From positions 1-35,601 of the IMG/VR virus record IMGVR_UViG_3300014656_000078: a stretch of 35,601 nucleotides of DNA; one strand, written 5' to 3'. The DNA comes from a virus. Lineage: Duplodnaviria > Caudoviricetes. The notes beneath the pieces are model-generated. The model saw only the letters and a list, made by a program, of their open reading frames with translations. It had not been told where the DNA came from and made no database searches. The position numbers and the translations under genes were made by a program. This document shows, one piece after another, positions 12,847 to 29,600 of the stretch (positions within the stretch are counted from its first letter, which is position 1; the number at the start of each line of letters is the position of its first letter).

Positions 12847-13025
12847 AATGGATAGTAGTATTGATGGCGGTGGCCCTGATGGGGTGCAGCACGAAGTATG
12901 ATACGGTTGACGGAAAGGATATCTCCGTCCGTGTTAGGTCTATATGGGCTGATATAGATTATGACTCCAGACGGTGCGGACCTTTACCTCCGTTAGATCC
13001 GGGAGGTCTGGAGCCTTTGGATTAA
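12843..13025 (+). CDS. Small lipoprotein (spanin candidate)
   Basis: Signal peptide with lipobox (MKWIVVLMAVALMG-C), Pro-rich C-terminus, coupled to the endolysin gene. Confidence 0.6.
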   Translation: MKWIVVLMAVALMGCSTKYDTVDGKDISVRVRSIWADIDYDSRRCGPLPPLDPGGLEPLD

Positions 13026-13495
13026 CTATTCTCCGCCCACTCCCGATGCGCCTTACGTTGCAAGTTAAATATTGGAACACCATATGCTTCCGCAATCGAT
13101 ATGGCAGTCCCGGTACCGCCAGTAAATCGAGATCTGTCAGTGTGTGAGATACATCCGTAAGGAGTCCAACAGATCATAAATTCTGACGGCTCGTTCATCT
13201 CACGACCTAATACCTGGAACACGTTCCGTGCGTGGAGTTTACGGGCGTATGAGCTACACGCCTGCCACCTCGGGTGGTATTTTTTAGCGATCTCCATCGC
13301 CTCCCATGTGGCGTGGTTCGCCCTGTAGATATCGGCAACCCCCGCAGCCCCTCGCTCGAACGCCTTGTCAGCCCCGGCAGCACCCCCGGACCGGAGAGTA
13401 AGTCCGGCCTGAGAGAGCCGGGAGGCTATGTTGGTCATCAGATCGAGAATATCCCTCGGTGCGGAGCGGCTGCCCACCCCTGTGTAATATTTCAT
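13022..13495 (-). CDS. SLOG-superfamily (DprA/Smf/YspA-like) protein
   Basis: YTGVGSR, LRSGGAAGADKAFE, ARN and GGTGTAI...IPIFNL-type motifs; the ATG at 13495 overlaps the upstream stop. Confidence 0.8.
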   Translation of the reverse strand: MKYYTGVGSRSAPRDILDLMTNIASRLSQAGLTLRSGGAAGADKAFERGAAGVADIYRANHATWEAMEIAKKYHPRWQACSSYARKLHARNVFQVLGREMNEPSEFMICWTPYGCISHTDRSRFTGGTGTAISIAEAYGVPIFNLQRKAHREWAENS

Positions 13496-13908
13496 CGTCT
13501 GTCCCACCGGGCTCGTTCAGACCGAACGTCAATGTGAGTGAACGTTCGGTACCGGCCGATACCATATTCATTGGGGCATCTCAGTTCCAAGGCCGTAGCC
13601 ACTTCATCCGGGGGCACCATAACCCACGCTCGGCCTTCACGTCTCTCGACCAGGATATCAGCAGCCTTGCCTGTCATATGCACCGACGATGATGAGTCCG
13701 GAACGTAATTGGGATTCTCTTCGAGCTGAACAGCCTCATTGTGCTCACGGCACCGACAGCCACTTATGATTGTCACCCGGACGTTATCCGTCCGAAGGAA
13801 GTTGAGAGGTCCGTTAATCAGTTCTGCGTCCACAGTGTCGAATTTGCAGTTGTGGCAGCGGCAGGTGAACTCGTCTCGCCAGAAGTGTTTACTCAGTTGT
13901 CCTGTCAT
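13492..13908 (-). CDS. Peptidase M15A family (D-Ala-D-Ala carboxypeptidase / YcbK-like)
   Basis: LSKHF..EFTCRC, ISGCRC..HN, SVHMTGKAAD and GIGRYRTFTHIDVR Zn-binding motifs. Confidence 0.9.
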   Translation of the reverse strand: MTGQLSKHFWRDEFTCRCHNCKFDTVDAELINGPLNFLRTDNVRVTIISGCRCREHNEAVQLEENPNYVPDSSSSVHMTGKAADILVERREGRAWVMVPPDEVATALELRCPNEYGIGRYRTFTHIDVRSERARWDRR

Positions 13909-14084
13909 TTCACCCCCTTACAGAACTCATACGCCGCGCTCAACCGAACGCCTGTCAGTCGCATGACCTCTTTGACCATCTTAATCCTGTTTGGAGAGCC
14001 GTCGCGGTACGGTTCGGTCAGACCTACGCGCCTGACGTGCCATCTCAGCGGATAGTTCCATTTCCAGAGTAGAAATTTTCTCAA
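13905..14084 (-). CDS. Small protein with an L7/L12 C-terminal-like helix pair
   Basis: AGGAGG RBS before TTG at 14084; NRIKMVKEVMRLTGVRLSAAYEFC. Confidence 0.45.
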   Translation of the reverse strand: MRKFLLWKWNYPLRWHVRRVGLTEPYRDGSPNRIKMVKEVMRLTGVRLSAAYEFCKGVK

Positions 14085-14222
14085 TTTTAGTCCTCCTTGT
14101 TTTATGATGTTCATACACAGGGTATTGACTGGCAGCACTGATAATTCTGATATTCTCCAGTTCGTGGCGTTCAGGATGTAACGGACTCGGGAGTAATATC
14201 AGCACTGCCAGTATAAGCCACC

Positions 14223-14381
14223 TCACCCGTACCTCTTTATCAGGAATATAACTGATAGATTTAACACGCCGGCAGACAGCCAATATAGTCCGGACCCCCA
14301 CCGTCCACACCAGAGCAGGATCGTCGCCGCCCCGAAAGACTCTATGGCTATGAGCAGTGGCAGTGCGTCGAGCCAGGTCAT
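14223..14381 (-). CDS. Small membrane protein
   Basis: 52 aa with two hydrophobic segments; ATGA coupling to the upstream ORF. Confidence 0.55.
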   Translation of the reverse strand: MTWLDALPLLIAIESFGAATILLWCGRWGSGLYWLSAGVLNLSVIFLIKRYG

Positions 14382-14551
14382 GAGAGGGCCTTTAAGATAG
14401 AGGTTAAGCAATCCCATAAGACGTGTACCGATCCGTCGTCTTTTCCTTCCAGAGCGTACAGTGCCTGTCGTACCTTATCGAGTGTTCGTTCCAGATAGTC
14501 CACATACTCCGGATTTAATCTGGCGTCTTTGTATTTATCAGGTGTGGTCAT
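14378..14551 (-). CDS. Hypothetical protein (57 aa; not in ORF track)
   Basis: MTTPDKYKDARLNPEYVDYLERTLDKVRQALYALEGKDDGSVHVLWDCLTSILKALS; ATGA overlaps at both ends. Confidence 0.6.
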   Translation of the reverse strand: MTTPDKYKDARLNPEYVDYLERTLDKVRQALYALEGKDDGSVHVLWDCLTSILKALS

Positions 14552-14757
14552 TCACTCATCCTCACGTTTTTAATTGTGCAATCCAGAGAGCCGTCATCAA
14601 GATCAATGATAGTATTTACTTCAGCTTCTATGAAGTTTTTATCATCTAAATATAGTTTGACCGTGCTTCCTGGCACTATGAGAGGCTTGTCTTTAGTAAA
14701 AGTTCCGGAGAAAGATACAGTTCCTCCTGTTTTAAACCCGTCCAGTATTTCTTTCAT
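14548..14757 (-). CDS. Hypothetical protein
   Basis: GGAGG RBS; ATGA coupling at both ends. Confidence 0.6.
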   Translation of the reverse strand: MKEILDGFKTGGTVSFSGTFTKDKPLIVPGSTVKLYLDDKNFIEAEVNTIIDLDDGSLDCTIKNVRMSE

Positions 14758-14924
14758 TCCGTTACCTCCTGAGTTAACCAAGCCATTATGCCCGTAGGCT
14801 CTATATCACTGCTTCCATACAGATAATACTCTTCTATTTCTATTGTACATTGATTTAATACTCTCGAAGCGGATATGCTGTCGCCACCTATTTCTTTGAG
14901 CGCTACTTCACGTAATCTATCCAT
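14754..14924 (-). CDS. Hypothetical protein (56 aa; not in ORF track)
   Basis: MDRLREVALKEIGGDS...WLTQEVTE; first ORF downstream of the leftward promoter. Confidence 0.55.
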   Translation of the reverse strand: MDRLREVALKEIGGDSISASRVLNQCTIEIEEYYLYGSSDIEPTGIMAWLTQEVTE

Positions 14925-14982
14925 TTATACCCCCATCCTATAGTTTACTGTGAACCCACACTTACCACCAGACCGAACAGAT

Positions 14983-15053
14983 GTCCAATTGTTAAAATCT
15001 ATAGGTGCTATAGGAACAATCAATTGGACTTTTATGGCTGAGAGATGTAGGTT
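14983..15053. promoter_or_regulatory. Divergent promoter pair sharing a four-tetramer operator box (box 1)
   Basis: GTCCA-ATTG-N7-CTAT-N7-ATAG-N7-CAAT-TGGAC is dyad-symmetric. Rightward TGGACT-17-TAGGTT; leftward TGGACA-17-TAAGTG. It sits at the switch of gene orientation. Confidence 0.75.
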
Positions 15054-15094
15054 GAGGCCGTAATCGACATTAACCTACAGAACGGGAGGAACAA

Positions 15095-15928
15095 ATGAAA
15101 GAAATTTTAAGAATTATTGGTAAAGCATTAATGGACATCGCAGGATTGCTGCCGGATCGGGTGGTGCCTGGGACTGAGTGCGTTGGGTGCGTCACGAAAG
15201 TAAAACCCACGGAAACCTGGAAGGAAGATCCTCCAGCGCAGGAAGCAATTGAAGAGATCATATCAAGAAGATCTGGAGACGCATCATGTTCCGGGGGAAC
15301 GCCCCCTCCGACCGGACTCATGAACGAATGTGTTGAAACAGCACCATTATATACTGACATGCCTTGCAGCACTGTGAGCCCTCCGGTGCAGACAGCCCCT
15401 CCGGTGCAGACAGCCCCTCCGGTGCAGACAGATACACCCGAGCTGGACTCCGAAGGTATCCCGTGGGATAAACGTATTCACAGCTCTGGGAAGACTCAGT
15501 ACAAACAGACCGTGGGGGACAAGAAAGAAGGGTCCTGGATTCACCGTAAGGGCGTCGATCCGATCCTGCTGGCACAGGTTAAGACTGAATTGTATCAGAA
15601 ATATCATCCCGCCGATACAGAACCCGCGGCGCCCCCGGTTCAGGCTACACAGGCCACTCTCACCAATACCGACGCTGTGCCGACCTCGCAGCCATTTACC
15701 CAACCGCAGGTACAGCAGGGCCTTCCACTGCCCTATGGCTCCATCACCAAATGGGCGCCGTTGATGCGGGAAGCTGCTGGCCGTGGGATAAACCATGTGG
15801 CGGCTGACGGTATCCTCACTTCGGCTGGACTGCCCACAATTGCAGCGCTCCAAAACAATCCGAGCATTATACCGGTGGCGGCGGTTGCCCTCGGGCTCAC
15901 CGCCAAACCCGAACAGGTGACGAATTGA
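15095..15928 (+). CDS. Phage protein with PWDxRIHS motif and Pro/Gln/Thr low-complexity linkers
   Basis: ELDSEGIPWDKRIHSSGKT...GSW..RKGVD; GGGAGG RBS; precedes the nuclease/SSB genes. Confidence 0.7.
   Translation: MKEILRIIGKALMDIAGLLPDRVVPGTECVGCVTKVKPTETWKEDPPAQEAIEEIISRRSGDASCSGGTPPPTGLMNECVETAPLYTDMPCSTVSPPVQTAPPVQTAPPVQTDTPELDSEGIPWDKRIHSSGKTQYKQTVGDKKEGSWIHRKGVDPILLAQVKTELYQKYHPADTEPAAPPVQATQATLTNTDAVPTSQPFTQPQVQQGLPLPYGSITKWAPLMREAAGRGINHVAADGILTSAGLPTIAALQNNPSIIPVAAVALGLTAKPEQVTN
15380..15431 (+). repeat. 18-bp coding tandem repeat, ~3 copies (PPVQTA)
   Basis: CCTCCGGTGCAGACAGCC units. Confidence 0.9.
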
Positions 15929-16995
15929 AGTTCAATGCCTCCGCTTTAGACCGGGTAATGGGGTGCGCCGGGTCATATCTCCTGGAGCAACAGTACCCCT
16001 ACGAGACGAACGGCGCTGCTCTGGAAGGGAGGGCGGCGGCTAAAGTAGCGGAACTCTGTCTGCTCGAACGTAAGTTGCCGTCAGAGTTCCTGGGTCAGCA
16101 GATTCTGGATGTGTGGGTAGACCAGGAGATGATAACCGCAGTTGAGAAATATACCGCATTCTGTTACAGTCTGAACGCTGAACGAGGGGGTGTGGAAGAC
16201 CGGGGAGAACTGGAAGTCATGAGCCACACTGTGGTCTGCATACCCGACTTCTGGGCCGTCTCAGGGTTCACGCTGCACATCGTTGACTTTAAGTACGGTC
16301 ATGGATGGGTGTTTCCGGAAGAAAACTGGCAGTGCATAGCTGGTGCCATCATCAAAGCCACACCGGGCATTAGAGACGTGCAGATCCATATCTGCCAGCC
16401 CCGAGCGAACAGACGGTCAGGAGGTCCTGTCTGGTCCTGGGGATTTAACGCCGAACTGCTTCGGAATTACAGAAACCAGATTGATAATCAAGTGAGACTG
16501 GCGGTACTGCCTGGCGCTCTGTGTCAGTCCGGGCCGTGGTGCCGGTACTGCAAGCACATTATAAACTGCCCGACAAACGCCCATGCTGCGGGAGACTGTA
16601 TGGATGCTGCCGGAATATCCGATAGTTTCACCCCGACACCGAATGAAGTGGCTATTGAACTGTCCAGGCTGGAGACTGCGGCAGCGAGGATTAAACACCG
16701 ATTTACAGCACTGGAAGCCCATGGATTGGCGCTCATTAAGTCCGGACAGTTACTGTCGGGGTATGAGGCCCGACAGACAATGAGTGCTTTAAAATGGACA
16801 GTGGACGCTATTACCGCCGGGGATGAGATGGGTATCGACCTCCGGAAACCTGAAGAGGCGATCACGCCGACTCAAGCGATTGACAGGAAACTGATAGACG
16901 CAACAATGATTGATTTCATGGCTAAACGGGAATTACAAGGACATAAACTTAAACTCGTCGATTTAGACGCAATAAGGAGTATTATCAATGGCTGA
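15925..16995 (+). CDS. DUF2800-like PD-(D/E)XK (Cas4-like) nuclease
   Basis: N-terminal Cys (CAGS), PD...IVDFKYG, QPR and GPWCRYC...C; located upstream of SSB and polymerase. Confidence 0.8.
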   Translation: MKFNASALDRVMGCAGSYLLEQQYPYETNGAALEGRAAAKVAELCLLERKLPSEFLGQQILDVWVDQEMITAVEKYTAFCYSLNAERGGVEDRGELEVMSHTVVCIPDFWAVSGFTLHIVDFKYGHGWVFPEENWQCIAGAIIKATPGIRDVQIHICQPRANRRSGGPVWSWGFNAELLRNYRNQIDNQVRLAVLPGALCQSGPWCRYCKHIINCPTNAHAAGDCMDAAGISDSFTPTPNEVAIELSRLETAAARIKHRFTALEAHGLALIKSGQLLSGYEARQTMSALKWTVDAITAGDEMGIDLRKPEEAITPTQAIDRKLIDATMIDFMAKRELQGHKLKLVDLDAIRSIING

Positions 16996-17782
16996 TCAAG
17001 TATACCTCAACGTAAGTGGACGACTGGTACAGGGAGATGTGTTCACACCTGTTACCACAGACATGAAAGGTCGTCCGATGACTGACAAGAACGGCAACCC
17101 GAAGGTACAGTATTTCTGCGCTGTGGCTGTTGAGAAGAACGCTCCGGACTTCGGACCGGCATGGCAAGGGATTCAGAACGTGGCGAACGCTGCTTTTAAG
17201 AACGGCGAGACCCAACGCCCCACGTTCGCCTGGAAATTAGTGGACGGTGATACCCGGGAAAACGCGAATAAGGAAGGTTTCCCCGGGCATTGGGTCTTCC
17301 GGTTCACAAGCGGCTACCCGTTCTCTGTTGTCTCCGGGGCTGAAGCTCGCCCGGTAACGAACCAGAACGAGATTAAACGTGGGTATTATGTCCAGGTGTT
17401 CTTCACGGTCGCCGGTAACGGGGACTCCACGAAACCCGGAGTTTATCTGAATGGCGCTGTCGTCCGGTTCATCGGCTACGGCCCTGAAATCTCAACAGGC
17501 CCGAACGCAGCAGCACTGGTAGCCGCTGCTGGTTCTGGATACGTTCCTAAAGGCGCTCAGACCACGCCTCTGGCTGGCAGTGGTCCGCAGTTCCAGCCCC
17601 CGGCAGGACAGCAGTTCCAGCCCCCGGCAGGACAGCAGTTCCAGGCCCCGGCAGGACAGCAGTTCCAGCCCCCGGCAGGACAGCAGTTCCAGGGACCCCC
17701 GACCGGTCCGCAGGGTGGCACCATCCCTCCACACTACGGCCCGCTAAATACCGGAGCACCTGATAGCGACCTGCCATTCTAA
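16988..17782 (+). CDS. Single-stranded DNA-binding protein (DUF2815 / gp2.5-like)
   Basis: W..DGD...GFPGHWV, GVYLN..VV, disordered tail ending DSDLPF; position between nuclease and polymerase. Confidence 0.8.
   Translation: MADQVYLNVSGRLVQGDVFTPVTTDMKGRPMTDKNGNPKVQYFCAVAVEKNAPDFGPAWQGIQNVANAAFKNGETQRPTFAWKLVDGDTRENANKEGFPGHWVFRFTSGYPFSVVSGAEARPVTNQNEIKRGYYVQVFFTVAGNGDSTKPGVYLNGAVVRFIGYGPEISTGPNAAALVAAAGSGYVPKGAQTTPLAGSGPQFQPPAGQQFQPPAGQQFQAPAGQQFQPPAGQQFQGPPTGPQGGTIPPHYGPLNTGAPDSDLPF
17588..17692 (+). repeat. 24-bp coding tandem repeat, ~4.4 copies (QFQPPAGQ)
   Basis: CAGTTCCAGCCCCCGGCAGGACAG units, one with a single substitution. Confidence 0.92.
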
Positions 17783-17810
17783 TTTAACCTAAACCAAGGA
17801 GCATAGACAG

Positions 17811-20387
17811 ATGACTTTACCCGCAATGGACTTTGAGACGTATTCTGAGGCAGGTTATGTATTCGACGAAAGTTGCGGGTACTTTAAACCGTTAATGAAA
17901 GGTAAACCAGGGATAGCCTGCGTCAACGCCCCGGTTTACGCCGAACATCCGTCGGCACGTGTGATCTCGTTGGCGTATAATCTGCTCGATGGCTGCGGGG
18001 TTCGACTGTGGACTCCGATATCCGGCGGCCCCGTTCCGTTATTCAATTACCTCCAGTCTGGAAATCTGATAGAAGCACATAACTCAGGGTTTGAGTATTA
18101 TATCTGGTTCTATGTCTGTCAGCAACGCATGGGCTGGCCGGAACTGCCGTTACACCAATTGAGATGTTCTGCGGCCAAGGCCAGAGCATGGGGGCTTCCG
18201 GGATCACTGGAGAAGGTGGCAGGTATAGTCACACCTGGTCGGGGTAAAGATCCGAGGGGTAAGAAGCTCATTCAGTTGCTGTCGATACCGAAGAAACCTA
18301 CCAAAGCGTGTTCCGAACTGTACCGTTCGTTCGAGAAGTACCCCGAGTTGCATTACGAGATGTACGAGTATAATGACCAGGATGTTGTGGCGGAACAGGA
18401 TGTGTCATCACGGATGCCAGAGATGTCGGAGTTTGAGACCCGGGTGTGGCTGTTAGACCAGGAGATTAACGTCCGGGGAGTTGCTATTGATCTGGAAGGA
18501 CTGGAAGCGTGTGTCCGTCTATTTCATCTGTCCAGTAATAAATATACTGCTGAATTGCAACGGATTACCGGGGGTGAAGTCCAGACGGTTGATGAAGTGT
18601 CGAAGACATCAGCGGGGGATAAGTGGCTTCAGTCCAGGGGATTTGACTTTCCGAGTCTTGATAAACAGACGGTGGAGGACTCCCTGGAACGGGCCGATCT
18701 CCCACCTGATGTTCGTCGAGTTCTGGAAATCCGCCAAGCTATCGGGGGCGCCGCGGTTAAGAAACTGTTCGCCATGCAGAGGTGTTTAAACAGTGACGGG
18801 CGGATCAGAGACTCGTTCGTATACTGCGGGGCTGAGAGGACCGGGCGGTTTGCGGGGCGCCAGATACAGCCCCAAAATTTTCGGAACGGCGGGCCTGAAG
18901 AAAACGGTATGGAGTGGGGAAACACTCTGGCCGAACGCGCTCTGGTCGATATCCACAATGGGGATCTGGAACAGATAGAGTCTCGGTGGGGGAACGCTAT
19001 TGATCTGATTGGGTCGTGCATGAGATCTTTACTGGTCGCCGGTCCTGGTAAAGAACTGATCTGCTCAGATTACAGTGCCATCGAAGCTGTGGTACTGGCA
19101 GCACTGGCCGGGGAGGAATGGCGCCTGGAGGTCTTCCGGACCCACGGGAAGATATACGAGATGTCCGCTGCTAAAATAACAGGGGTTCCTTTTAAAGATA
19201 TAATGGCTCACGCTGGGTATACTGATTTAGTAACCCCCGGGTGGTGGAAGATCGAACAGACCGGAAAACACCACCCGTTACGTAAAAAAATTGGTAAAAT
19301 AGCGGAATTGGGGTGTTTCGGTCCGGAGACTCCAGTGCTGACCGGGAGAGGGTGGGTTCCGATATCCAGGATAACTGCCGAAGATGTGATCCATGACGGG
19401 GTTACTTTTGTTGGGCATGAGGGGGTGGTTTACAAAGGTCATCGAAAGGTTATAGATCTACACGGGGTATCTGTTACCCCAGACCATAAGTTTTATATCC
19501 GAATCAACTTATGGGAAAATGCTTCGAGGTTATACAACTCTAAAACTTTATTTCAGAAAGCCGTCTCAGTAGCTCACAAAAGTGTCAAAGGTTTTCTTCA
19601 CGTTACTAAACCAGTATTAGACTTTAAGCCACAGTCCGACACATATGATATCCTGAACTGTGGCCCCCGTAACCGTTACGTTATTCTTACAGACCGAGGT
19701 CCTTTGATCGCTCACAACTCAGGATACGGTGGCTGGATTAATGCCTGGCTGAACTTTGGAGCTGGGGCCTTCATGACCGAGGAAGAGATCAAGACTGGCA
19801 TCCTGGCCTGGCGTGAAGCATCCCCAGCTATTGTGGAATTATGGGGCGGGCAGTGGCGGAAGGTTATGGGCAGATGGGAGTTCTACCGGGAGTTCTATGG
19901 GATTGAGGGTATGACTGTCCTTGCGATTGCCAACCCGGGAACGGAATATACTTACCGTGACTTGAAGTTCGGCGTGTTTGGAGACGTTCTGTATATCAGA
20001 TTGCCGTCCGGGCGCTGTCTGTCCTACCACGAACCACGACTGAACGTCGGAACGGACCCCCGGGGGCAGGAAGTCCAGCAGATCTCTTTCATGGGGATGG
20101 ACGGATATACCCACAAGTGGTCGAGAATATTGACACACGGGGCAAAATTGGCGGAAAACATTACGCAGGGGGCTGCCCGCGACATCCTGGCGGCTGCCCT
20201 GGTCAGAGTGAACGCCGCCGGGTATCCGCCGGTACTGCATGTGCATGATGAGATTGTGTCTGAGGTGCCGATAGGTTTCGGCAGTGTGGAAGAGTTCGAG
20301 CAGTTAATGGAAGTCAGAGAGCCGTGGTTCGCAGACTGGCCGATCAGTGCATCCGGCGGTTGGCGTGGGCATCGGTATAGGAAGTGA
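17811..20387 (+). CDS. DNA polymerase family A with 3'-5' exonuclease domain and a mini-intein
   Basis: ExoI DFET, ExoII AHNSGFE, ExoIII YNDQDV; TGRFAG; motif A DYSAIE; motif B R...GKIAELG/SGYGG; motif C VHDEI. Confidence 0.95.
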   Translation: MTLPAMDFETYSEAGYVFDESCGYFKPLMKGKPGIACVNAPVYAEHPSARVISLAYNLLDGCGVRLWTPISGGPVPLFNYLQSGNLIEAHNSGFEYYIWFYVCQQRMGWPELPLHQLRCSAAKARAWGLPGSLEKVAGIVTPGRGKDPRGKKLIQLLSIPKKPTKACSELYRSFEKYPELHYEMYEYNDQDVVAEQDVSSRMPEMSEFETRVWLLDQEINVRGVAIDLEGLEACVRLFHLSSNKYTAELQRITGGEVQTVDEVSKTSAGDKWLQSRGFDFPSLDKQTVEDSLERADLPPDVRRVLEIRQAIGGAAVKKLFAMQRCLNSDGRIRDSFVYCGAERTGRFAGRQIQPQNFRNGGPEENGMEWGNTLAERALVDIHNGDLEQIESRWGNAIDLIGSCMRSLLVAGPGKELICSDYSAIEAVVLAALAGEEWRLEVFRTHGKIYEMSAAKITGVPFKDIMAHAGYTDLVTPGWWKIEQTGKHHPLRKKIGKIAELGCFGPETPVLTGRGWVPISRITAEDVIHDGVTFVGHEGVVYKGHRKVIDLHGVSVTPDHKFYIRINLWENASRLYNSKTLFQKAVSVAHKSVKGFLHVTKPVLDFKPQSDTYDILNCGPRNRYVILTDRGPLIAHNSGYGGWINAWLNFGAGAFMTEEEIKTGILAWREASPAIVELWGGQWRKVMGRWEFYREFYGIEGMTVLAIANPGTEYTYRDLKFGVFGDVLYIRLPSGRCLSYHEPRLNVGTDPRGQEVQQISFMGMDGYTHKWSRILTHGAKLAENITQGAARDILAAALVRVNAAGYPPVLHVHDEIVSEVPIGFGSVEEFEQLMEVREPWFADWPISASGGWRGHRYRK
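19314..19718 (+). mobile_element. Mini-intein (135 aa, no homing endonuclease)
   Basis: Starts CFGPETPVLT (block A), has VTPDH (block B) and TYDI (block F), ends LIAHN followed by a +1 Ser; removing it restores KIAELG-SGYGG. Confidence 0.92.
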
Positions 20388-20391
20388 TGAT

Positions 20392-20571
20392 ATGTCAGCA
20401 GCAGATTATTATTTATGTGATGTTTGTGGAGATAAAACTTTTTATGATGCAGGTTTAGACTATGACAAGGACGGACTGGTCAGAGTCGGGGCGATGGTAG
20501 TCCTGTGCGAGTTCTGTAGCAAAAAATACGAGATTCATATAGTCTCTAAGGATGTGGGAGAAATATCGTGA
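20392..20571 (+). CDS. Small CxxC...CxxC metal-binding protein
   Basis: CDVC and CEFC. Confidence 0.6.
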   Translation: MSAADYYLCDVCGDKTFYDAGLDYDKDGLVRVGAMVVLCEFCSKKYEIHIVSKDVGEIS

Positions 20572-20780
20572 TTAAAAACTGGCAAGACAAACCGACAGAA
20601 GACGGGTATTGGCTGATATTAGACAGATGGCGTGGAATTCCAGAGACTGTAATACTGAGTGGTTTCGGGACATTAAATCCGGTTGTAAAGCGGACAAGGC
20701 CGAATGTAAGAATAACTCGATCCGGGTTCTTGAAAAACGCCAAGTGGGCGGGTCCTATCCAACTATTGGAAAATATATGA
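20568..20780 (+). CDS. Hypothetical protein
   Basis: WQDKPTEDGYW...WAGPI; coupled overlaps at both ends. Confidence 0.6.
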   Translation: MIKNWQDKPTEDGYWLILDRWRGIPETVILSGFGTLNPVVKRTRPNVRITRSGFLKNAKWAGPIQLLENI

Positions 20781-21547
20781 ACACACTGTTATACGGCGAT
20801 TGCCTGGAAGTAATGAAAGATATTCCTGATGGAAGTATTGATTTAGTTGTGACATCGCCTCCTTACGACAATTTACGGAATTATAATGACAGCCTGGAAT
20901 GGGGTGAACACGTCTGGAAGCCTGTTATCCAAGATCTATTTCGTGTCATTTCTGAAGGTGGTGTTGTGGTTTGGGTCGTAAATGACGCCACAATCAAAGG
21001 GTCTGAAACAGGCACCAGCTTCCGACAGGCACTACACTTCATGTCTGTTGGGTTCAATTTGCATGATACTATGATTTGGGTGAAAGATGGAGGGGGTGCA
21101 GTTGGCTCCAATAAATGTTACACCCAGAATTTTGAGTATGTGTTTGTGTTAAGCAAAGGTGCACCGAAGTCTTTCAACCTTATAAAAGACAAACCTAATA
21201 AATCATACGGGGTTGACAAATCAGGTATAGGGCGAAGGCTCCCCAACGGGGAGCATAAGGTCGAGACAAGAAAACCAGCTTCTGAACATAGCAAGAGAAA
21301 TAATTGGTGGTATTGCCCACCAGAGCGTGGCGATCACCCAGCAGTCTTCCCCGAAAAATTAGCCAACGACCACATTGTGTCCTGGTCGAACGAAAACGAT
21401 ACAGTCCTCGATCCGTTCATGGGCTCAGGCACCACAGGGGTAGCCTGCGCCAACCTGAATCGGAACTTCATCGGTATTGAGAAAGACAACGACTATTATA
21501 TGATAGCACACAACAGGATCGGCGGAGACATCCAGTATACACTATAG
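20777..21547 (+). CDS. DNA amino-methyltransferase, beta class (probably N4-cytosine)
   Basis: GDCLEVM, VTSPPY (motif IV), HPAVFP, VLDPFMGSGTT (motif I) and IGIE; start at ATG 20777. Confidence 0.93.
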   Translation: MNTLLYGDCLEVMKDIPDGSIDLVVTSPPYDNLRNYNDSLEWGEHVWKPVIQDLFRVISEGGVVVWVVNDATIKGSETGTSFRQALHFMSVGFNLHDTMIWVKDGGGAVGSNKCYTQNFEYVFVLSKGAPKSFNLIKDKPNKSYGVDKSGIGRRLPNGEHKVETRKPASEHSKRNNWWYCPPERGDHPAVFPEKLANDHIVSWSNENDTVLDPFMGSGTTGVACANLNRNFIGIEKDNDYYMIAHNRIGGDIQYTL

Positions 21548-21600
21548 CTATCGAACCTATAGCCAAAATCAATTGGACTTTCAGGGCTGGATATTATACT
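21537..21600 (+). promoter_or_regulatory. Promoter with four-tetramer operator box (box 2)
   Basis: ATAC-N7-CTAT-N7-ATAG-N7-CAAT-TGGACT, TATACT at 21595-21600, then AACGGGAGG RBS as at box 1. Confidence 0.72.
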
Positions 21601-21637
21601 GATACACTACGATTTAACAGTAACGGGAGGAAATAAA

Positions 21638-22312
21638 ATGCCGAACCACATTACGAATAAATTTACCCCTGTTGGAAAAGAAGAAGCTGTTCTTGAATTT
21701 CTCAAACAAGTATCCACAGATGACAGGGCTATCGATTTTAATAAGATTGTCGAAATGCCAGAAAGTTTACAGGTTGAAGACAGCTCTCTTGGGGATCTCG
21801 GGCTATTTCATTTATACGGAATGAAAAGACATGGATATTACCCTCTCTCAGATGGTGAGTTGTTCAGGAGATTTGAAGAACTGTCAGAAGAGATGAAAAT
21901 AGAGGCTGACAAGATAGGAAAAGCCTATAAATCAAATATGGAGGAGCATGGCTACAGAACGTGGTACGATTGGGCGAATGATAACTGGGGTACAAAATGG
22001 AACGCATACTCTACTCGTGTCGAAGATGACAGCATATATTTTGATACTGCATGGTCTGGTGTCCCTGATCTAATATGTAAATTATCATTGAAATTTCCGG
22101 ATCTTGGTTTCGAGTATTCTTGGGCTGACGAAGATACCGGGAGCAACACTGGTCGGATGAAAATTTACAACGGAGAGATCGTCGAGGACACAAGCCCTGA
22201 AAACTCATCAAAAGAAGCGTATGAACTGGCTTTTGAGCTTACTGACGCCAAGAAGTATTATGCTTGGAATGAAGAGGCCGGGCAGTACGAATACGTCGAA
22301 GACGAGGAGTAA
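21638..22312 (+). CDS. DUF1281 / YubB-like ferredoxin-fold protein
   Basis: MPNHITN, DFNKIV.MP, WYDWANDNWGTKWNA, FDTAWS and WADED.GSN.G signature. Confidence 0.8.
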   Translation: MPNHITNKFTPVGKEEAVLEFLKQVSTDDRAIDFNKIVEMPESLQVEDSSLGDLGLFHLYGMKRHGYYPLSDGELFRRFEELSEEMKIEADKIGKAYKSNMEEHGYRTWYDWANDNWGTKWNAYSTRVEDDSIYFDTAWSGVPDLICKLSLKFPDLGFEYSWADEDTGSNTGRMKIYNGEIVEDTSPENSSKEAYELAFELTDAKKYYAWNEEAGQYEYVEDEE

Positions 22313-22317
22313 CGATT

Positions 22318-22500
22318 ATGAATCTAATAAGCTGTAAGCAATGCGGGGTTGTTCTGGATAAAGACCAGTTGGAATTTCCGGATATCGAGGACGACAATGG
22401 GGATTATATCGACGGTCTGTGGATGTGGGACCATGACTTAGGGTTTTTCTCTAAACTACCATGCCCTGTATGTAAGGGTGATATACCAGAGAAGGAATAG
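22318..22500 (+). CDS. Small zinc-ribbon protein
   Basis: CKQCG...CPVC. Confidence 0.65.
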   Translation: MNLISCKQCGVVLDKDQLEFPDIEDDNGDYIDGLWMWDHDLGFFSKLPCPVCKGDIPEKE

Positions 22501-22502
22501 AT

Positions 22503-22649
22503 ATGGACGTAGAATATATTTACTGCCCAAGCTGTGGGTACGAAGATTATGTTGTCTATTCAGCAACCTACGCCAATGGTGACTTTTTTATCTGCCCTGG
22601 ATGTGGGGAAGAAACATCCCATGTTGAGGTGGGTGAGGAGGGTTTTTGA
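22503..22649 (+). CDS. Small zinc-ribbon protein (48 aa; not in ORF track)
   Basis: MDVEYIYCPSCGYEDYVVYSATYANGDFFICPGCGEETSHVEVGEEGF. Confidence 0.65.
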   Translation: MDVEYIYCPSCGYEDYVVYSATYANGDFFICPGCGEETSHVEVGEEGF

Positions 22650-22650
22650 T

Positions 22651-22983
22651 ATGTCTGATTACTTGAAATATAGAGGTAAATGTAAAGAGATGTGCGAAGC
22701 TGCAATCTCAGAGGACCCAACTCTTACCCTCGTTCGAGGTCATTACTTTGAGCCTATGTGGAATAGCGAAGAACAGCACTGGTGGACTGTCAGAACTGAC
22801 GGAACAATCTTCGATCCATCTGTAAAACAATTCCCGTCGAGAGGATCTGGTATCTATACTGAGTTCAACGGATTTGTAACCTGTGAAGAATGTGGAAAAA
22901 CTATGGAAGAAAAAGACGCTCAAGCAATGGGGAATTACATGGTCTGCTCTACAAAATGTGCGATGCGTCTGGTCGGGCTCTGA
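22651..22983 (+). CDS. Cys-rich hypothetical phage protein
   Basis: GAGGAGG RBS; GKC...HWW...IFDP, CEECG and CSTKC. Confidence 0.7.
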   Translation: MSDYLKYRGKCKEMCEAAISEDPTLTLVRGHYFEPMWNSEEQHWWTVRTDGTIFDPSVKQFPSRGSGIYTEFNGFVTCEECGKTMEEKDAQAMGNYMVCSTKCAMRLVGL

Positions 22984-22986
22984 TAA

Positions 22987-24618
22987 ATGACAGACAGACC
23001 ATACCAAATAACCATAGGTGATGACATCGATGCTGCCTGGGCTGACGGCGCTCAGAACGTATGTGCTACCTTGCCCTGCGGTGGTGGAAAAACCTACGTC
23101 TTCTCTAAGAAGCTGAAACGCAACACTGGCGTGTCTTTCGCTATCGCCCACCGGCAGGAACTGGTGAGCCAGATGTCATTCACCCTGGCAAAACAGGGGG
23201 TGGTTCACAGCCTCCAGGCATCGGCCAGTCTCTGCAAATATATAATAACGGAGCAAATCCGCAGGTTCGGGCGGCGCTATGAGTCACCGAACGCCAACTG
23301 TATTGTAGCGGGGGTTAAGACCCTGCTGAACCGGCAGAAGGTGCTGAAACCGATGATAGACCGGGCGTCACTGTGGGTAACTGATGAGTGTCATCACGTA
23401 GCTGGCGGTAACGAGTGGATGCAGGCTGTCGGCCTGTTCCCTGAGACCTGCCGGGGACTGGGAGTTACTGCCACCCCGGAACGGGCAGATGGGCAGGGTA
23501 TCGGGCGGTCAGCTTCCGGGGTATTCGATGTGCTGGTGAGCGGCCCAGGTATGCGAGAGCTTATAAACGCGGGGTATCTCACAGACTACCGAGTATTCAG
23601 TCCGTCATCGAACATAGATCTGACAGGGCTAAAGGTCGGCAAGTCGGGGGATTACAGCAAGCCGAAACTGACCGCTGCTGTCCGTCGATCCCCTATCGTT
23701 GGAGATGTGGTTAAGAGCTACCTCCGGTTTGCTCCCGGTAAGATAGGAGTTACGTTCGTTCCGGACGTTCAGACAGCAAAGGATATAGCCTCCTCTTATA
23801 CCGCCTCTGGAGTACCAGCACGGGTGGTTCATGCAGGAACTCCCGACCGAGAACGCTATAAGTCCATTGAGATGCTCACACGGGGGGATCTGAAAGAGCT
23901 TGTAAACGTCGATATCTTTGGGGAAGGGTTTGATCTCCCTGCAATTGAAGTGGTCAGTTTAGCCCGTCCGACAGCCTCATACAATCTTCATGTTCAGCAA
24001 TTTGGAAGAGGTTTACGTATTATGGACGGGAAGAAATACGCCATAATCATAGATCATGTTGGAAATATCCATCCTCGCCATGGCCTCCCAGATAAGTTCC
24101 GCGAATGGTCTCTGGAAGGCTCCCGTGCCACCAAACGCAAGGATGAAGATTTAATACCGACAAGAGTGTGCAGGGAGTGCCTGGGCACGTACGAATCTTA
24201 CGAGAGAGATTGCCCGTACTGCGGGTGGCAATATGTTACTCAGGGTAACGCTACGATTGAAATGGTCGAGGGGGATCTGAGTGAGATAGATCCCGCGGTA
24301 CTGGCAGCAATGCGGGGTGAGGTAGCCCGGGTGGATGCTCCGGACTATGAAGTCGGTGAGAAACTGAGACACGCCGGGGCGCCACCGGCCGCCGTGATGG
24401 GGGCTATGAAAAACCACCGGCTGAGACAGGAAGCACAGACAGAACTGCGGGAGATGATAGCCACATGGTGTGGATACCAACGCGCCGCCGGTCAGTCCGA
24501 CTCAGTTATTATGATGAGATTTTACCGCACGTTCGGAACAGACATACTGTCAGCCCAGGCTCTGGGTCGCCCGGAGGCGGAGGCGCTGACAGAACGAATA
24601 GAGGAGAGAGTTCGATGA
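22987..24618 (+). CDS. SF2 DEAD/DEAH-box helicase with C-terminal Zn ribbon
   Basis: RPYQ, PCGGGKT, DECHH, TATP, EGFDLP, QQFGRGLR and CREC..CPYC. Confidence 0.93.
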   Translation: MTDRPYQITIGDDIDAAWADGAQNVCATLPCGGGKTYVFSKKLKRNTGVSFAIAHRQELVSQMSFTLAKQGVVHSLQASASLCKYIITEQIRRFGRRYESPNANCIVAGVKTLLNRQKVLKPMIDRASLWVTDECHHVAGGNEWMQAVGLFPETCRGLGVTATPERADGQGIGRSASGVFDVLVSGPGMRELINAGYLTDYRVFSPSSNIDLTGLKVGKSGDYSKPKLTAAVRRSPIVGDVVKSYLRFAPGKIGVTFVPDVQTAKDIASSYTASGVPARVVHAGTPDRERYKSIEMLTRGDLKELVNVDIFGEGFDLPAIEVVSLARPTASYNLHVQQFGRGLRIMDGKKYAIIIDHVGNIHPRHGLPDKFREWSLEGSRATKRKDEDLIPTRVCRECLGTYESYERDCPYCGWQYVTQGNATIEMVEGDLSEIDPAVLAAMRGEVARVDAPDYEVGEKLRHAGAPPAAVMGAMKNHRLRQEAQTELREMIATWCGYQRAAGQSDSVIMMRFYRTFGTDILSAQALGRPEAEALTERIEERVR

Positions 24619-24992
24619 GATGTTCATGTGAAATAAATGGTTGTTGTGAAGAAGAGTACGAAGAGTGGGAAGAAAAACTTCTCACGCACGAATCACCGTC
24701 TGTAATCATCACATGTGGTGAATGTGGCAAAGAGATCCAGATCGGGGAGAAATTTGAATGGTATCGGGGAGAATATGAAGATGAAACCCATGTCCACCAT
24801 ACCTGCATGGACTGTTTGTCTCTCAGGGAAAACTTCTTTGGCGATTGGACATTTGAAAGGCTTTGGGAGGATTTCTATCAACACATGGATGATTGTGGTT
24901 GGAAAATACCGGAAGTTTGTCTTTCCAAGGTCACACCAACGACCCGATCTAAAATATGTGAAAGCATTGAAGATTCTTGGGACGTTATCTAA
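24615..24992 (+). CDS. Cys-rich hypothetical protein
   Basis: CSC, CGECG..I..GE and TCMDC. Confidence 0.65.
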   Translation: MRCSCEINGCCEEEYEEWEEKLLTHESPSVIITCGECGKEIQIGEKFEWYRGEYEDETHVHHTCMDCLSLRENFFGDWTFERLWEDFYQHMDDCGWKIPEVCLSKVTPTTRSKICESIEDSWDVI

Positions 24993-25052
24993 AAAACCTA
25001 TCAGACCTATCAGATTAATCAATTGGACAATTCTGACGGACTGGAATAAGCT
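24987..25052 (+). promoter_or_regulatory. Promoter with four-tetramer operator box (box 3)
   Basis: ATCT-N7-CTAT-N7-ATCA-N7-CAAT-TGGACA-17-TAAGCT, then GGGAGG RBS. Confidence 0.72.
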
Positions 25053-25078
25053 ATTTTAACTTTAACTGGGAGGGTGTT

Positions 25079-25519
25079 ATGAATAAAATGGACAGAGAAT
25101 ACTTAGAGAGACGGGTGGACGGGATTGTTAAATGCACCAACGGTACTATTGCTACAATATTTAACAAACAGAAAAAAGGAACAGGTCTGACTGATAATAA
25201 GAAATACAAACTTATTGCTTCTGGAGAAGCTAAGGTCAAAGAGTTGAACGAAATTGTCAACAAAGAAAAATATTATGGTGATTCGCAATTCAAGATTCTG
25301 TTAGACTGCTTTGACTACCCCACTACAGCTTCTCAACTGGAAAAGATAGCTTTTAATAAAACCATAGATAATCAGGCCGAAGAGTTAATGCAGGAAGTGA
25401 CTCTCGAAGGTAAACGACTTATTGACAAAGTTGTTTTAGGTATATTACCTATGAACGACGTGCCGGATGCTCTCCACGCTTTAGGCGAGATGGCTTCCCT
25501 GGCGAGGAGAACAATATGA
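25079..25519 (+). CDS. Hypothetical protein
   Basis: 146 aa, good RBS, first gene after box 3. Confidence 0.7.
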   Translation: MNKMDREYLERRVDGIVKCTNGTIATIFNKQKKGTGLTDNKKYKLIASGEAKVKELNEIVNKEKYYGDSQFKILLDCFDYPTTASQLEKIAFNKTIDNQAEELMQEVTLEGKRLIDKVVLGILPMNDVPDALHALGEMASLARRTI

Positions 25520-25710
25520 AACCAAAACAACTGGACGCTGAAAAACGCGGAGTAGTCGACAGCAATATCTATGCTGCTGTTATGGAAGCCAATCAGCACG
25601 TCAAGCAAAACTGCGCCCACATGAACGTATACCAGCGGAATACCGCCTGGAACATCGCGTACCATGAGGCTATGGATCGGATGTGTAAAATGGACGGTGT
25701 GAGGGTATGA
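25516..25710 (+). CDS. Hypothetical protein
   Basis: GAGGAG RBS; ATGA coupling. Confidence 0.6.
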   Translation: MKPKQLDAEKRGVVDSNIYAAVMEANQHVKQNCAHMNVYQRNTAWNIAYHEAMDRMCKMDGVRV

Positions 25711-25931
25711 GTATTTTAGATACCGAAGAGCAGATGAGAGTCGTTGCGGATTTACTGTCAATGCAGTTTCCTGAAATGGGTTTCGCGCTGATAATATTCC
25801 CGTTTGAAAACCCTGGAGTATCAAATTATATTTCAAATGGTGATCGTGATGGGATGATTGAAGCTCTGAGAGAAACTGCTGACAGATTAGAGAAAAACGA
25901 GGTAATACCAGCGATACAAGGGAGGGCTTAA
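25707..25931 (+). CDS. Hypothetical protein
   Basis: GFALIIFPF...NYISNGDR..MIEAL; translationally coupled. Confidence 0.65.
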   Translation: MSILDTEEQMRVVADLLSMQFPEMGFALIIFPFENPGVSNYISNGDRDGMIEALRETADRLEKNEVIPAIQGRA

Positions 25932-26227
25932 TGGACACATCTGGAAGAATTAGATATTTACAAATGGAAGACGCCCCAAAAGATTGGGACGGGTTCGTAG
26001 AGGATTGGAGACGACCTTCTACTAAATTTGAAGCGATGAAGTTGATTGGGAAGGAACTCAAAAGAAATGAGATCCCACTTAAAAACTCCGAAGCTGAAAA
26101 GCTGAGAAGAATGTCCATCCCTAAACGTAAAAACTGGATGCGCAATCATAGCTGTCCTTGCGGATCAGGTAAGAAAATGAAAAGGTGCTGTTGGTCCAAA
26201 CTGGCACTGGGCGGGGTGAGGGTATGA
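25931..26227 (+). CDS. SEC-C motif-containing protein
   Basis: RNHSCPCGSGKKMKRCC. Confidence 0.8.
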   Translation: MDTSGRIRYLQMEDAPKDWDGFVEDWRRPSTKFEAMKLIGKELKRNEIPLKNSEAEKLRRMSIPKRKNWMRNHSCPCGSGKKMKRCCWSKLALGGVRV

Positions 26228-26397
26228 GCATTGACGCGGTAGGGGAAGTCGTATACCGTAAGTACCTTGCCCGCCTGAAGAAACTCAGGGACCGGAGCGC
26301 CATGACACTGGATGAACGCCGGGAGTTGCTGATAAACACTATAATACGGGAGAAACTGAAGTATGATCTTAGAAAACTGGATAGAGAAACACGTTAA
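26224..26397 (+). CDS. Hypothetical basic protein
   Basis: ATGA coupling; 57 aa. Confidence 0.5.
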   Translation: MSIDAVGEVVYRKYLARLKKLRDRSAMTLDERRELLINTIIREKLKYDLRKLDRETR

Positions 26398-26674
26398 ATG
26401 GTCGCAGGAGACCTTCGGTCCTGGGTGTGATGATAATGGTATCATTGACCACATCGAACGGGAACTGGTAGAGATTATCCATGCTCCAGGTGATCTGGAA
26501 GAGTGGATTGATGTTATAATCCTTGCGATTGATGGCGCCACCAGGAACGGCCACTCACCGGCGGAAATCACGACGTGCCTGGAGATGAAACGAATCAAGA
26601 ACGCTCAGCGCGAGTGGAATCCGGTAGTTCCTGGCAGGGCAACTGAGCACGTTCGGGCCGGAGGTGGGTTATGA
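26363..26674 (+). CDS. DUF550-like dATP/dGTP pyrophosphohydrolase (MazG-like fold)
   Basis: WSQETFGPG...IDHIERELVE...DLEEWIDVIILAIDG...K..KN..REW. Confidence 0.82.
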   Translation: MILENWIEKHVKWSQETFGPGCDDNGIIDHIERELVEIIHAPGDLEEWIDVIILAIDGATRNGHSPAEITTCLEMKRIKNAQREWNPVVPGRATEHVRAGGGL

Positions 26675-26997
26675 TCGACTGGACAAGCAAAGGAAACGTC
26701 AGTAACAGCTCTGATAAATATAAAAATATTGTCAATGCTGTTGATAATTTAATCAGAGAGTCCGCGCATATGTTGATTGCCGGTCAGACTCAAAAAGTGG
26801 CAAGACTTATAGTTTCACATCTCGCGCACAAGTGGAATATGTCCCCTTCACCTGTCTGGTTTGGTATTGATATGGGCGCACCGGAAGGTGATAAAGGTTT
26901 TCCATCGCCTTGTTTAGACGAAACAACAAATGCCACAGACGATAGGTCTCTTGAAGCGTGGGGAAAAGTTATTCTGAAACCGAGAGAGAGGTTATAA
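26671..26997 (+). CDS. Hypothetical protein
   Basis: GGAGG RBS; ATGA coupling. Confidence 0.55.
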   Translation: MIDWTSKGNVSNSSDKYKNIVNAVDNLIRESAHMLIAGQTQKVARLIVSHLAHKWNMSPSPVWFGIDMGAPEGDKGFPSPCLDETTNATDDRSLEAWGKVILKPRERL

Positions 26998-26999
26998 TC

Positions 27000-27443
27000 G
27001 TGCTGCAACAGTGGGCAGCACGGTGGGGACTTCCACCGCAGGCGCTGACCGAACTCACGGACGCACTCACAGTCACCGCCAGCCACGCAGATGGTAAGTC
27101 CGAGGCGTATGTGCAGCAACAGGTGAGACTGGAGACTTCCCGACGGGGGGCACGGTTATTCCGGAATAACAATGGGGCCTGTAAGTCTGAGGATGGCCGG
27201 ATGGTACGATACGGTCTCGGGAATGACAGCGCTCAGGTAAACGCCAAGCTGAAGTCTTCAGACCTGATCGGGATTACACCTGTGGGGGGTGTAGGCGTGT
27301 TCACATCTTATGAGATTAAGAAACCCGGATGGCGGTACGCCGGGACACCCCGGGAGGTCGCACAGTTGCGGTGGCTCGAACTGGTCGTGTCGCTCGGCGG
27401 GATCGGTAAGTTTATATCGGATGTGGGGGATTTGGACTTATAA
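27000..27443 (+). CDS. VRR-NUC domain nuclease
   Basis: SEAYVQ, LFRNNNG, SSDLIG, EIKKPG and Q.RWL..V...GG. Confidence 0.85.
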   Translation: MLQQWAARWGLPPQALTELTDALTVTASHADGKSEAYVQQQVRLETSRRGARLFRNNNGACKSEDGRMVRYGLGNDSAQVNAKLKSSDLIGITPVGGVGVFTSYEIKKPGWRYAGTPREVAQLRWLELVVSLGGIGKFISDVGDLDL

Positions 27444-27474
27444 CTGAGAGTTTATTAGAGGAAGGATTTTAATA

Positions 27475-27831
27475 ATGGAATACAAAATCACAGAAAAACA
27501 GTGTAGGGATAGCATCCCTGAGAACGCGGTATGTTCACAATGTGGCGGTGTATTAGAGCCGATAGAAACGGTTGATAATGCCAATGACCCTACATTTTGG
27601 TGTGGCTGCAAAACGTGTTTCCGGTTCGATAATGGTGTCTCCTCGGATTTATATTATATCGCAAAGGAATTGGTGGAGAACCGAAGATACAGGCATTACC
27701 GCCACATTGAGCATAAAGAGGACGATAGCGAAGAAACTAAGGCGTATAAAATAGGATGCCAGATAAGCGGAGCTTGTGGCCTTGTTAGCGATGTCCTGGC
27801 TATCCAGAAAAAAATATCTACTGCCTTATAA
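27475..27831 (+). CDS. Cys-rich hypothetical protein
   Basis: CSQCGG and WCGCKTC. Confidence 0.65.
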   Translation: MEYKITEKQCRDSIPENAVCSQCGGVLEPIETVDNANDPTFWCGCKTCFRFDNGVSSDLYYIAKELVENRRYRHYRHIEHKEDDSEETKAYKIGCQISGACGLVSDVLAIQKKISTAL

Positions 27832-27848
27832 TTTGGAGGATTGAACCC

Positions 27849-28130
27849 ATGCCAGAAGAAATCAAAGAAGATAAACGCTGCGCCACATGCGGAAAAGATG
27901 AAGCCCAGACCGGAAAGCCATGCCCGACCAGGACAGGGTGCTTTACCCCTGATTACAAAAATTGGGAGCCGATTGCGGAAGTGGACAAAGACAACCCTGG
28001 GTGGAAAATCAACTATCTGACTTTTGATAATGAAAATAGCCATGTAACCGTTTCGTTGAGCAGTGTCTCGGGTGGTTGCATCATGGTCGAAATGTCACCG
28101 GATGAAATCGCTAAATTTGCAATAACGTAG
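27849..28130 (+). CDS. Hypothetical protein
   Basis: GGAGG RBS; CATC..C..C cluster. Confidence 0.6.
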   Translation: MPEEIKEDKRCATCGKDEAQTGKPCPTRTGCFTPDYKNWEPIAEVDKDNPGWKINYLTFDNENSHVTVSLSSVSGGCIMVEMSPDEIAKFAIT

Positions 28131-28148
28131 AATGAAACGGAGAGCGTT

Positions 28149-28322
28149 ATGGCAAAAAAATTAGAGATTGTTTCAGGAGAAAATAGCCGTGATTTTTGGC
28201 ATGATATCAATAGCATTAATGCACTGTCTACTGGCGATGATATCCGTGTGGTGTTGTACCATATCGGCTGTAAAATGCAGGAGCTTGAGTCTGAGATAGA
28301 AAAATTAACTGAGATTGAATAG
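28149..28322 (+). CDS. Hypothetical protein (57 aa; not in ORF track)
   Basis: GGAGAGCGTT-ATG; MAKKLEIVSGENSRDFWHDIN...IEKLTEIE. Confidence 0.6.
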   Translation: MAKKLEIVSGENSRDFWHDINSINALSTGDDIRVVLYHIGCKMQELESEIEKLTEIE

Positions 28323-28334
28323 GAGAGCGTTATC

Positions 28335-28571: not shown

Positions 28572-28580
28572 GAAAGCGAT

Positions 28581-28787: not shown

Positions 28788-28878
28788 TGAAAAAAGCTAA
28801 CTGGATAACACCACAAACCGACAAGATATCCAGAAAAAAACTGGATAAACCGCAGAGCGAACCAAAGGGAGAAATAAA

Positions 28879-29548: not shown

Positions 29549-29600
29549 ACTTTTTAATATAATAACCTGAACTTTGTTCATAATATAAGGAGAGATCACC

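Follow-up and report, generated by a model that had tools for sequence, protein, structure and literature searches.

Putative operators for a host OxyR-type regulator at the replication promoters of a tailed phage

The replication region and its boxes

The stretch of DNA analysed here, the IMG/VR virus record IMGVR_UViG_3300014656_000078 (35,601 nucleotides, referred to as the window), is the record of a tailed phage in which three 37 bp boxes precede replication genes. Each box consists of four ATAG-type tetramers with 7 bp spacers, the tetramers being 11 bp apart. Tail and lysis genes occupy the window up to ~13 kb, while the rightward replication region (15095–32202) encodes an exonuclease, a single-stranded DNA-binding protein (SSB), a family A polymerase, a methyltransferase, a helicase and a primase. 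The best match among sequencing runs was a groundwater metagenome, from which the record may have come, with small shares in groundwater and sediment runs. On balance, the boxes are probably operators at which an OxyR-type LysR tetramer of the host activates the replication promoters of the phage.

Box 1 (14988–15024; ATTG/CTAT/ATAG/CAAT), a predicted symmetric four-tetramer operator of the OxyR type common to two divergent predicted promoters, agrees with the consensus at 14 of 16 positions, as does box 2 (21537–21573, plus strand; ATAC/CTAT/ATAG/CAAT). Box 3 (24987–25023, plus strand; ATCT/CTAT/ATCA/CAAT) is the weakest, with 11 of 16. The boxes had been described, with the same coordinates, tetramers and spacing, in an earlier reading of the letters alone (the sequence-only reading), and all of these were recovered when checked in the sequence. 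All three boxes run straight into TGGAC(T/A), and each is accompanied by a GGGAGG ribosome-binding site (RBS), as had also been described. The TAnnnT −10 element proposed to follow each −35 is found at a distance of 17 bp at sites 1 and 3, but at 15 bp at site 2 (16 bp if the −35 is shifted one base earlier).

Box 1 is mirror-symmetric, and the sequence-only reading missed a fourth −35, TGGACA, on the minus strand (14987–14982), directed toward the leftward genes. Since box 1 is thus flanked by a TGGAC −35 on both sides, four promoters, each shorter than 100 bp, are predicted in all, and at each of them the box abuts a non-consensus sigma70 −35 of the TGGAC(T/A) form. The predicted rightward promoter of site 1, P1R (15025–15053, plus strand), combines TGGACT with a −10 TAGGTT at 17 bp and an RBS at 15084–15089, and the block conserved in relatives ends at 15053–15063. 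Its leftward counterpart, P1L (14959–14987, minus strand), has an uncertain −10 and belongs to a block kept in relatives from 14947–14954. The predicted promoter P2 (21574–21600, plus strand) is composed of TGGACT, a 15 bp spacer and TATACT, with an RBS at 21625–21630, and P3 (25024–25052, plus strand) of TGGACA, a 17 bp spacer and TAAGCT, with an RBS at 25068–25073.

Each rightward box stands at the head of one block of the replication region. The genes behind P1R (15095–21547, plus strand) include one without assignment, followed by those encoding a DUF2800 exonuclease, the SSB, the family A DNA polymerase and the DNA methyltransferase. P2 is followed (21638–24992, plus strand) by genes for an Api92-like ferredoxin-domain protein and an SF2 helicase along with small open reading frames (ORFs), and P3 (25079–32202, plus strand) by small ORFs and genes for a dATP/dGTP pyrophosphohydrolase, an endonuclease and the primase. 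The leftward genes behind P1L (13022–14924, minus strand) comprise small ORFs, an M15 peptidase gene and a gene for a DprA-like protein.

A chance origin of the boxes was rejected on the basis of a shuffle test and of simulations with the textbook consensus. A pattern derived from the sites themselves has four matches in the window at up to three mismatches, compared with 0.05 in shuffles. As an independent test, the textbook ATAG-N7-CTAT-N7-ATAG-N7-CTAT at up to two mismatches finds two sites (null mean 0.01; 0 of 200 simulations). The window contains exactly four copies of CAATTGGAC, all inside boxes. The T-N11-A signature is kept in all six window dyads, and the two dyads of a box lie 22 bp apart, as is characteristic of LysR-type operators. 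The outer spacers agree at 20 of 36 positions with the half-site that PMC3378865 gives from chromatin immunoprecipitation in P. aeruginosa (P 0.0002 with random 7-mers as the null and 0.028 with shuffles inside the spacers). Two other readings of the motif were considered. The read variant C15008>A makes a CTATAG repeat at 9 bp less likely as the basic unit, and an FNR/CRP box, suggested by ATCAA in the last tetramer, has no partner half-site at the required spacing, as judged by eye.

Conservation of the boxes

A scan of IMG/VR identified one close relative, phage G001 (81% complete), in which all boxes are kept, including the T-N11-A of their dyads. That the boxes are conserved in relatives is borne out by this genome, where the promoter blocks are 99, 92 and 89% identical to those of the window, compared with ~75–87% for the genes, and where the four promoter cores are retained although the neighbouring genes, including the first downstream genes, differ. 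Box 1 is kept at 99%, and P2 is identical. The upstream spacer and first tetramer of box 2 are altered, with AT, CTAT, ATAG and CAAT retained, while the identical stretch at site 3 begins a single base upstream of the first tetramer, with TACTAT as the −10 at the same spacing. A fifth CAATTGGAC in G001 (60226) lacks the tetramers, and no box at up to three mismatches was found in the head and tail regions of that genome. G001 also carries an extra box with two mismatches (20189–20225; L005:189–225), which lacks a −35 and lies directly 5′ of an RBS, ~200 bp upstream of its site 2. This extra box is possibly the scar of a promoter-anchored gene insertion.

Contigs from four sequencing runs provide a second view of site 1. 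A variant present in three of the four runs differs from the window by 15 substitutions, all of which are located in spacers and none in the 16 tetramer positions. The same variant is nearer to the inverted box, with five differences, again all in spacers (P 0.047), and the inner part of box 1 seems, from these contigs, to have been inverted in some lineages. The tetramers are therefore constrained and the spacers free to vary (0 of 15 substitutions in tetramers, and 0 of 5 relative to the inverted box). Across contigs and runs, the divergent promoter block (14951–15063) is joined to different downstream genes, in one example directly to the methyltransferase gene.

The box at bacterial peroxide-defence genes

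A strict phage-derived pattern has four matches in GTDB. One of them, in a Nitrococcus genome (L017 in G002), is intergenic and lies before a gene of the di-haem cytochrome c peroxidase family, with ATTG at the first tetramer even though the pattern left that position free. This match served as the seed for a search in which 301 genomes from the class of G002 were scanned blind, with two mismatches allowed and the reversed pattern as a control. The search yielded 20 matches (19 distinct sites in 17 genomes), compared with seven for the reversed pattern. With the seed excluded, seven of the 18 new sites lie directly upstream of peroxide-defence genes (P ~2e-12 at an assumed base rate of 0.5%), which indicates that the same site marks such genes in bacteria. 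The promoters concerned are those of peroxiredoxin/AhpC genes (L018, L022, L024, L027), a cytochrome c peroxidase family gene (L019), a catalase gene (L020) and a rubrerythrin gene (L021), and L018 has ahpC on one side and an oxyR-like gene (303.7 bits; cut-off 329) on the other. A further match, L026, which lies across the start of a dps gene, was placed among the ORF matches and counted as chance.

The similarity extends into the promoter. L017 and the rubrerythrin promoter of genome G003 both end in CAATTGGAC, and both genomes carry an OxyR-like gene. The last 16 bases of the G003 promoter are common with box 1 and its −35. A matrix built from nine bacterial peroxide-gene sites places the four phage sites at the 90th–99.7th percentile of window 42-mers, a ranking that used the 23 columns left free by the pattern and to which AT-richness may contribute. 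The proposal of the sequence-only reading that these are OxyR/LysR-type sites is supported by the blind matches at bacterial peroxide-defence promoters, by the sparing of the tetramers from variation and by the lack of a LysR gene among those found in the phage.

The same promoter type in other viruses

With the pattern devoid of its first tetramer, seven loci in viruses other than relatives were found, of which six have ATTG or ATAG at that tetramer (five of six distinct). In IMG/VR, a general form of the box was found at 46 loci, which form 38 clusters with G001 counted in, whereas the reversed pattern gave 32 loci that fall into 13 clusters (P 0.0006). Among 45 distinct oriented viral sites, 19 are followed by TAnnnT at a spacer of 16–18 bp, as against 0–6 at other offsets, which served as the control because the reversed-pattern loci had no flanking sequence, and 20 are next to a −35 of the TRGAC, TRGCA or TGACA type. 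As in box 1, both strands match at seven of these 46 loci.

The downstream genes that could be assigned are all phage genes, encoding D5-like regulators, terminase small subunits, an endonuclease and a helicase (PHROG assignments for 13 of 31 scanned). The L088 protein had no match among cultured phages. Nine contigs were checked whole, and three (G305, G306, G312) contain several boxes. G306 is a complete genome of an unrelated myovirus with four boxes, one of which precedes a replication operon for Sak4, SSB, exonuclease, clamp and helicase. In the T5-like contigs L051, L053 and L151 (G312), boxes, several of them bidirectional, are located between the terminase small subunit gene and repeated small D5-like genes. 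The box is common to myo-, T5-like and siphovirus-type phages.

Regulator candidates and host

No LysR gene had been recognized in the window in the sequence-only reading, and a search for the LysR helix-turn-helix (HTH) confirmed this; the domain was found in none of five box-bearing phages (the window phage, G001, G306, G309 and G312; some of these records are incomplete). The window encodes one rival candidate activator that the sequence-only reading did not name, a 289-aa protein (33934–34803, minus strand) with two C-terminal ribbon-helix-helix (RHH)-like repeats (Arc-like, E 7.6e-5). It is the first gene of the leftward operon beginning at 34803 and stands behind a near-consensus sigma70 promoter without a box (34836–34864, minus strand; TTGACA-17-TACATT with an extended −10), which is predicted to be constitutive and early and has the same layout in G001. 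A near-palindrome over the −10 of this promoter (34828–34842) could, as judged by eye, be an operator through which the RHH protein regulates its own gene; it is not clearly kept in G001. The protein itself is kept in G001 at 45%, has only three homologues among those found, and contains Arc/FitA-like repeats with two or three RHH-like motifs. Its N-terminal domain is weakly similar to a beta-clamp in a predicted structure (TM 0.45, low confidence); the predicted fold (pLDDT 38) was set aside, and a PDB profile search gave only matches at E 0.8–0.9. A function of this protein in autoregulation or host takeover is likelier than activation at the boxes.

The host of the phage is probably a sulfate reducer of the Desulfobacterota, because of a DsrA-derived peptide in G001 and of the relatives of the window endolysin. 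The former is a 107-aa ORF (L004:11732–12055, minus strand) in which 21 residues are identical to the N-terminus of Desulfobacterales DsrA, whereas gammaproteobacterial DsrA (the class of G002) matches the peptide at no more than 68%; this ORF is possibly a captured host fragment or a mimic of the sulfite reductase N-terminus. The first three named relatives of the endolysin are from Pseudodesulfovibrio/Desulfovibrio (64–68%), followed by Marinobacterium and Kiloniella. A tail tube search and a look-up of the endolysin cluster indicated no host.

As regards lifestyle, 57 ORFs of the window and 86 of the ~100 candidate ORFs of G001 gave no match to an integrase or repressor family, and the phage is therefore likely to be virulent. 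The closest helicases from cultured phages show no more than 50% identity (SppYZU01, MSW-3), and most small ORFs are without family assignment. The DNA polymerase of the window contains an intein-like insert (19314–19718; Cys502 to His-Asn636) that is lacking in the G001 polymerase, and the G001 helicase carries an intein. The primase ATPase domain (DUF5906) is partly duplicated in G001, a second, incomplete copy of 180 aa being encoded by the first gene behind site 3 (L004:15439–15978, minus strand). A glycosyltransferase-like gene within the tail operon (1–666) is kept in G001. A non-coding, AT-rich segment (34870–35260; 31% GC), partly kept in G001 at 74%, is a candidate origin or genome end.

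Proposed mechanism and alternative explanations

The reading of the boxes as operators of host OxyR is based on the boxes and their geometry, their conservation, the match to bacterial peroxide-gene promoters and the lack of a phage LysR in the sequence examined. From these we infer the transcription starts, OxyR as the bound protein, activation and the dependence on host redox state. An OxyR-type tetramer would sit on the four tetramers, on one helix face, beside the weak TGGAC −35, and would recruit host sigma70 RNA polymerase at four promoters that cover the whole replication region. Oxidized OxyR bound next to the −35 is reported to assist sigma70 polymerase in this manner (PMC3378865, among others). 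The box-free consensus promoter at 34864 would fire first, and the exonuclease, SSB, polymerase, helicase and primase would then depend on the host sensor, with a single tetramer on the symmetric box 1 serving both directions. Activation would track host redox state, signalled by H2O2 or, in a sulfidic host, by sulfane sulfur. PMC6831875 describes E. coli OxyR as activated by polysulfide and protective under anaerobic conditions, and polysulfide may be regarded as a plausible OxyR signal in a sulfidic anaerobe. The fullest version of this proposal, in which a virulent Desulfobacterales phage would gate its whole replication programme by a host OxyR-type sensor and start it upon exposure of the anaerobic host to peroxide or polysulfide at an oxic–anoxic boundary, is tentative and, as it stands, rather doubtful.

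Several observations weigh against activation by OxyR. The probable host is its main weakness: PMC545781 finds no OxyR orthologue in the delta-proteobacteria studied there (six model species) and reports PerR instead, while Table S1 of PMC6831875 lists only 15 OxyR proteins in Deltaproteobacteria, without naming species. OxyR is not mentioned in the main text of PMC2702500 (word search) or in the supplement of PMC5109826, and nothing useful was found in the literature on OxyR in Desulfobacterota. None of the four strict GTDB matches is in Desulfobacterota, and three of the four overlap ORFs and are not located at a peroxide gene. Eleven of the 18 new bacterial sites are inside ORFs (five) or before genes without assignment (six), and only one of 12 catalase promoters chosen without the pattern has a box at up to three mismatches, a count to which the unpublished genome G043 contributes one promoter (L141) that enters no other result. 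Within the phage, box 3 has five mismatches to the textbook consensus, which is background level in the consensus test alone, P1L lacks a TAnnnT −10 (TAAGTG stands at 17 bp), the P2 spacer is only 15 bp, and part of the genome (the window being 73% complete) lies outside the window. The conservation in G001 may in part reflect recent exchange, given how close its promoters are (89–99%). The box is lineage-restricted: all five relatives at 39–49% protein identity (helicase and primase queries) are without it and have no obvious replacement motif, and it was not found in the three cultured phages SppYZU01, MSW-3 and DC31. No further close relatives emerged from an SSB query, a metagenome scan returned only the window contig and G001, and blastn of promoter 1 gave seven records, all at chance level.

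A LysR-type factor of the host, whether OxyR as an activator, another LysR, or OxyR as a repressor or titrated sensor, is very probably what reads the boxes in some role. The most substantial competitor of OxyR is another host regulator of this family, with an OxyR-like DNA-reading helix and a different signal; it is possible, though not probable. The T-N11-A dyads are general across the LysR family, and the PerR-containing, OxyR-free model species of the Desulfobacterota (PMC545781) would be consistent with such a factor. Nevertheless, all assignable bacterial matches of the phage pattern are peroxide-defence genes, and the similarity takes in CAAT as the fourth tetramer, an A-rich last spacer and also the −35. 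It is unlikely that OxyR binds the boxes and represses, or that the boxes serve mainly as decoys, titrating the host sensor while the phage replicates. P22 gtr is both repressed and activated by OxyR, reduced OxyR acts as a repressor, and OxyR would be mostly reduced in an anoxic host; however, the boxes stop exactly at a non-consensus −35 and leave the −10 free, as in activated peroxide-gene promoters, they contain no GATC pairs, and every full box stands at the head of an operon.

Phage-encoded factors, taken together, are improbable as the source of the regulator. Activation by the tandem RHH protein, which would be made first and bind CTATAG/CTATCA hexamers 9 bp apart, draws on the position of its gene directly behind the near-consensus promoter, its 45% conservation in G001, its Arc/FitA-like repeats and the presence of CTAT in both central hexamers at all window sites, even at site 3, where ATAG is missing. 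However, the same box is found on bacterial peroxide genes, and the read variant C15008>A destroys the second CTATAG while leaving ATAG intact. A homologue was found in none of five unrelated box-bearing phages (a search with no positive control and with partly incomplete records), and the RHH protein therefore cannot explain the box class; neither it nor a LysR HTH is common to the phages that share the box. We regard this explanation as quite unlikely. An activator that mimics OxyR specificity and is encoded in the missing part of the genome is least credible, indeed very unlikely. Both genomes are incomplete (73 and 81%) and most of their small ORFs lack a family, but the complete box-bearing genomes G306 and G309 have no LysR HTH, and for a box shared by myo-, T5-like and siphovirus-type phages a host factor is the simpler explanation.

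If binding by OxyR is demonstrated, host redox state would be a condition for lytic development in many environmental phages, and this would have a bearing on the lysis of cells by viruses at the redox boundaries of aquifers and sediments. Should OxyR gating in Desulfobacterales be true as well, it would point to an unrecognized OxyR-type regulon in sulfate reducers and to widespread redox-gated lytic phage promoters.

Comparison with known systems

The boxes share with the OxyR-dependent peroxide-defence promoters (E. coli katG and ahpCF; the P. aeruginosa regulon as presented in PMC3378865) the four ATAG-type tetramers, the 7 bp spacing, T-N11-A and AT-rich outer spacers, and with the bacterial matches of the phage pattern the CAAT end followed by a T(A/G)GAC-like −35. 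Unlike the peroxide promoters, they precede replication genes of a phage; box 3, moreover, has a degenerate sequence, and box 1 is a symmetric site flanked by two −35s.

Each OxyR–phage precedent found (Pf4 xisF4, P22 gtr, Mu mom, lambda pM) concerns one accessory or lysogeny gene in a temperate phage. A literature search whose coverage excluded most subscription journals found no report of a lytic phage with OxyR boxes at its replication genes. Mu mom (PMC3378877) and P22 gtr (PMC2909390) resemble the present case as phage promoters wired to host OxyR. However, they are accessory genes under Dam methylation, and gtr requires only reduced OxyR and has three half-sites. The boxes described here have two half-sites and no GATC, unlike the Dam/OxyR phase switch, in which GATC lies inside three half-sites. 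The sequence-only reading cited Mu mom as a precedent, which holds for host OxyR acting on a phage gene but not for the geometry, since at mom OxyR works together with C, an activator encoded by the phage, and with Dam methylation. At lambda pM (PMC2903704), OxyR binds a phage regulatory region but favours prophage maintenance via cI, which is the opposite logic. The closest parallel is Pf4 xisF4 (PMC12395586), at which host OxyR activates a phage promoter leading to phage replication under oxidative stress. Pf4, however, is an integrated inovirus with one target, the excisionase, and OxyR is bound there at the −10 region, whereas the phage analysed here is tailed, carries the boxes on four promoters of replication genes and has no integrase or repressor in the ORFs scanned. 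The window contributes the full coverage of a replication region, the bidirectional box and the probable anaerobic sulfate-reducing host.

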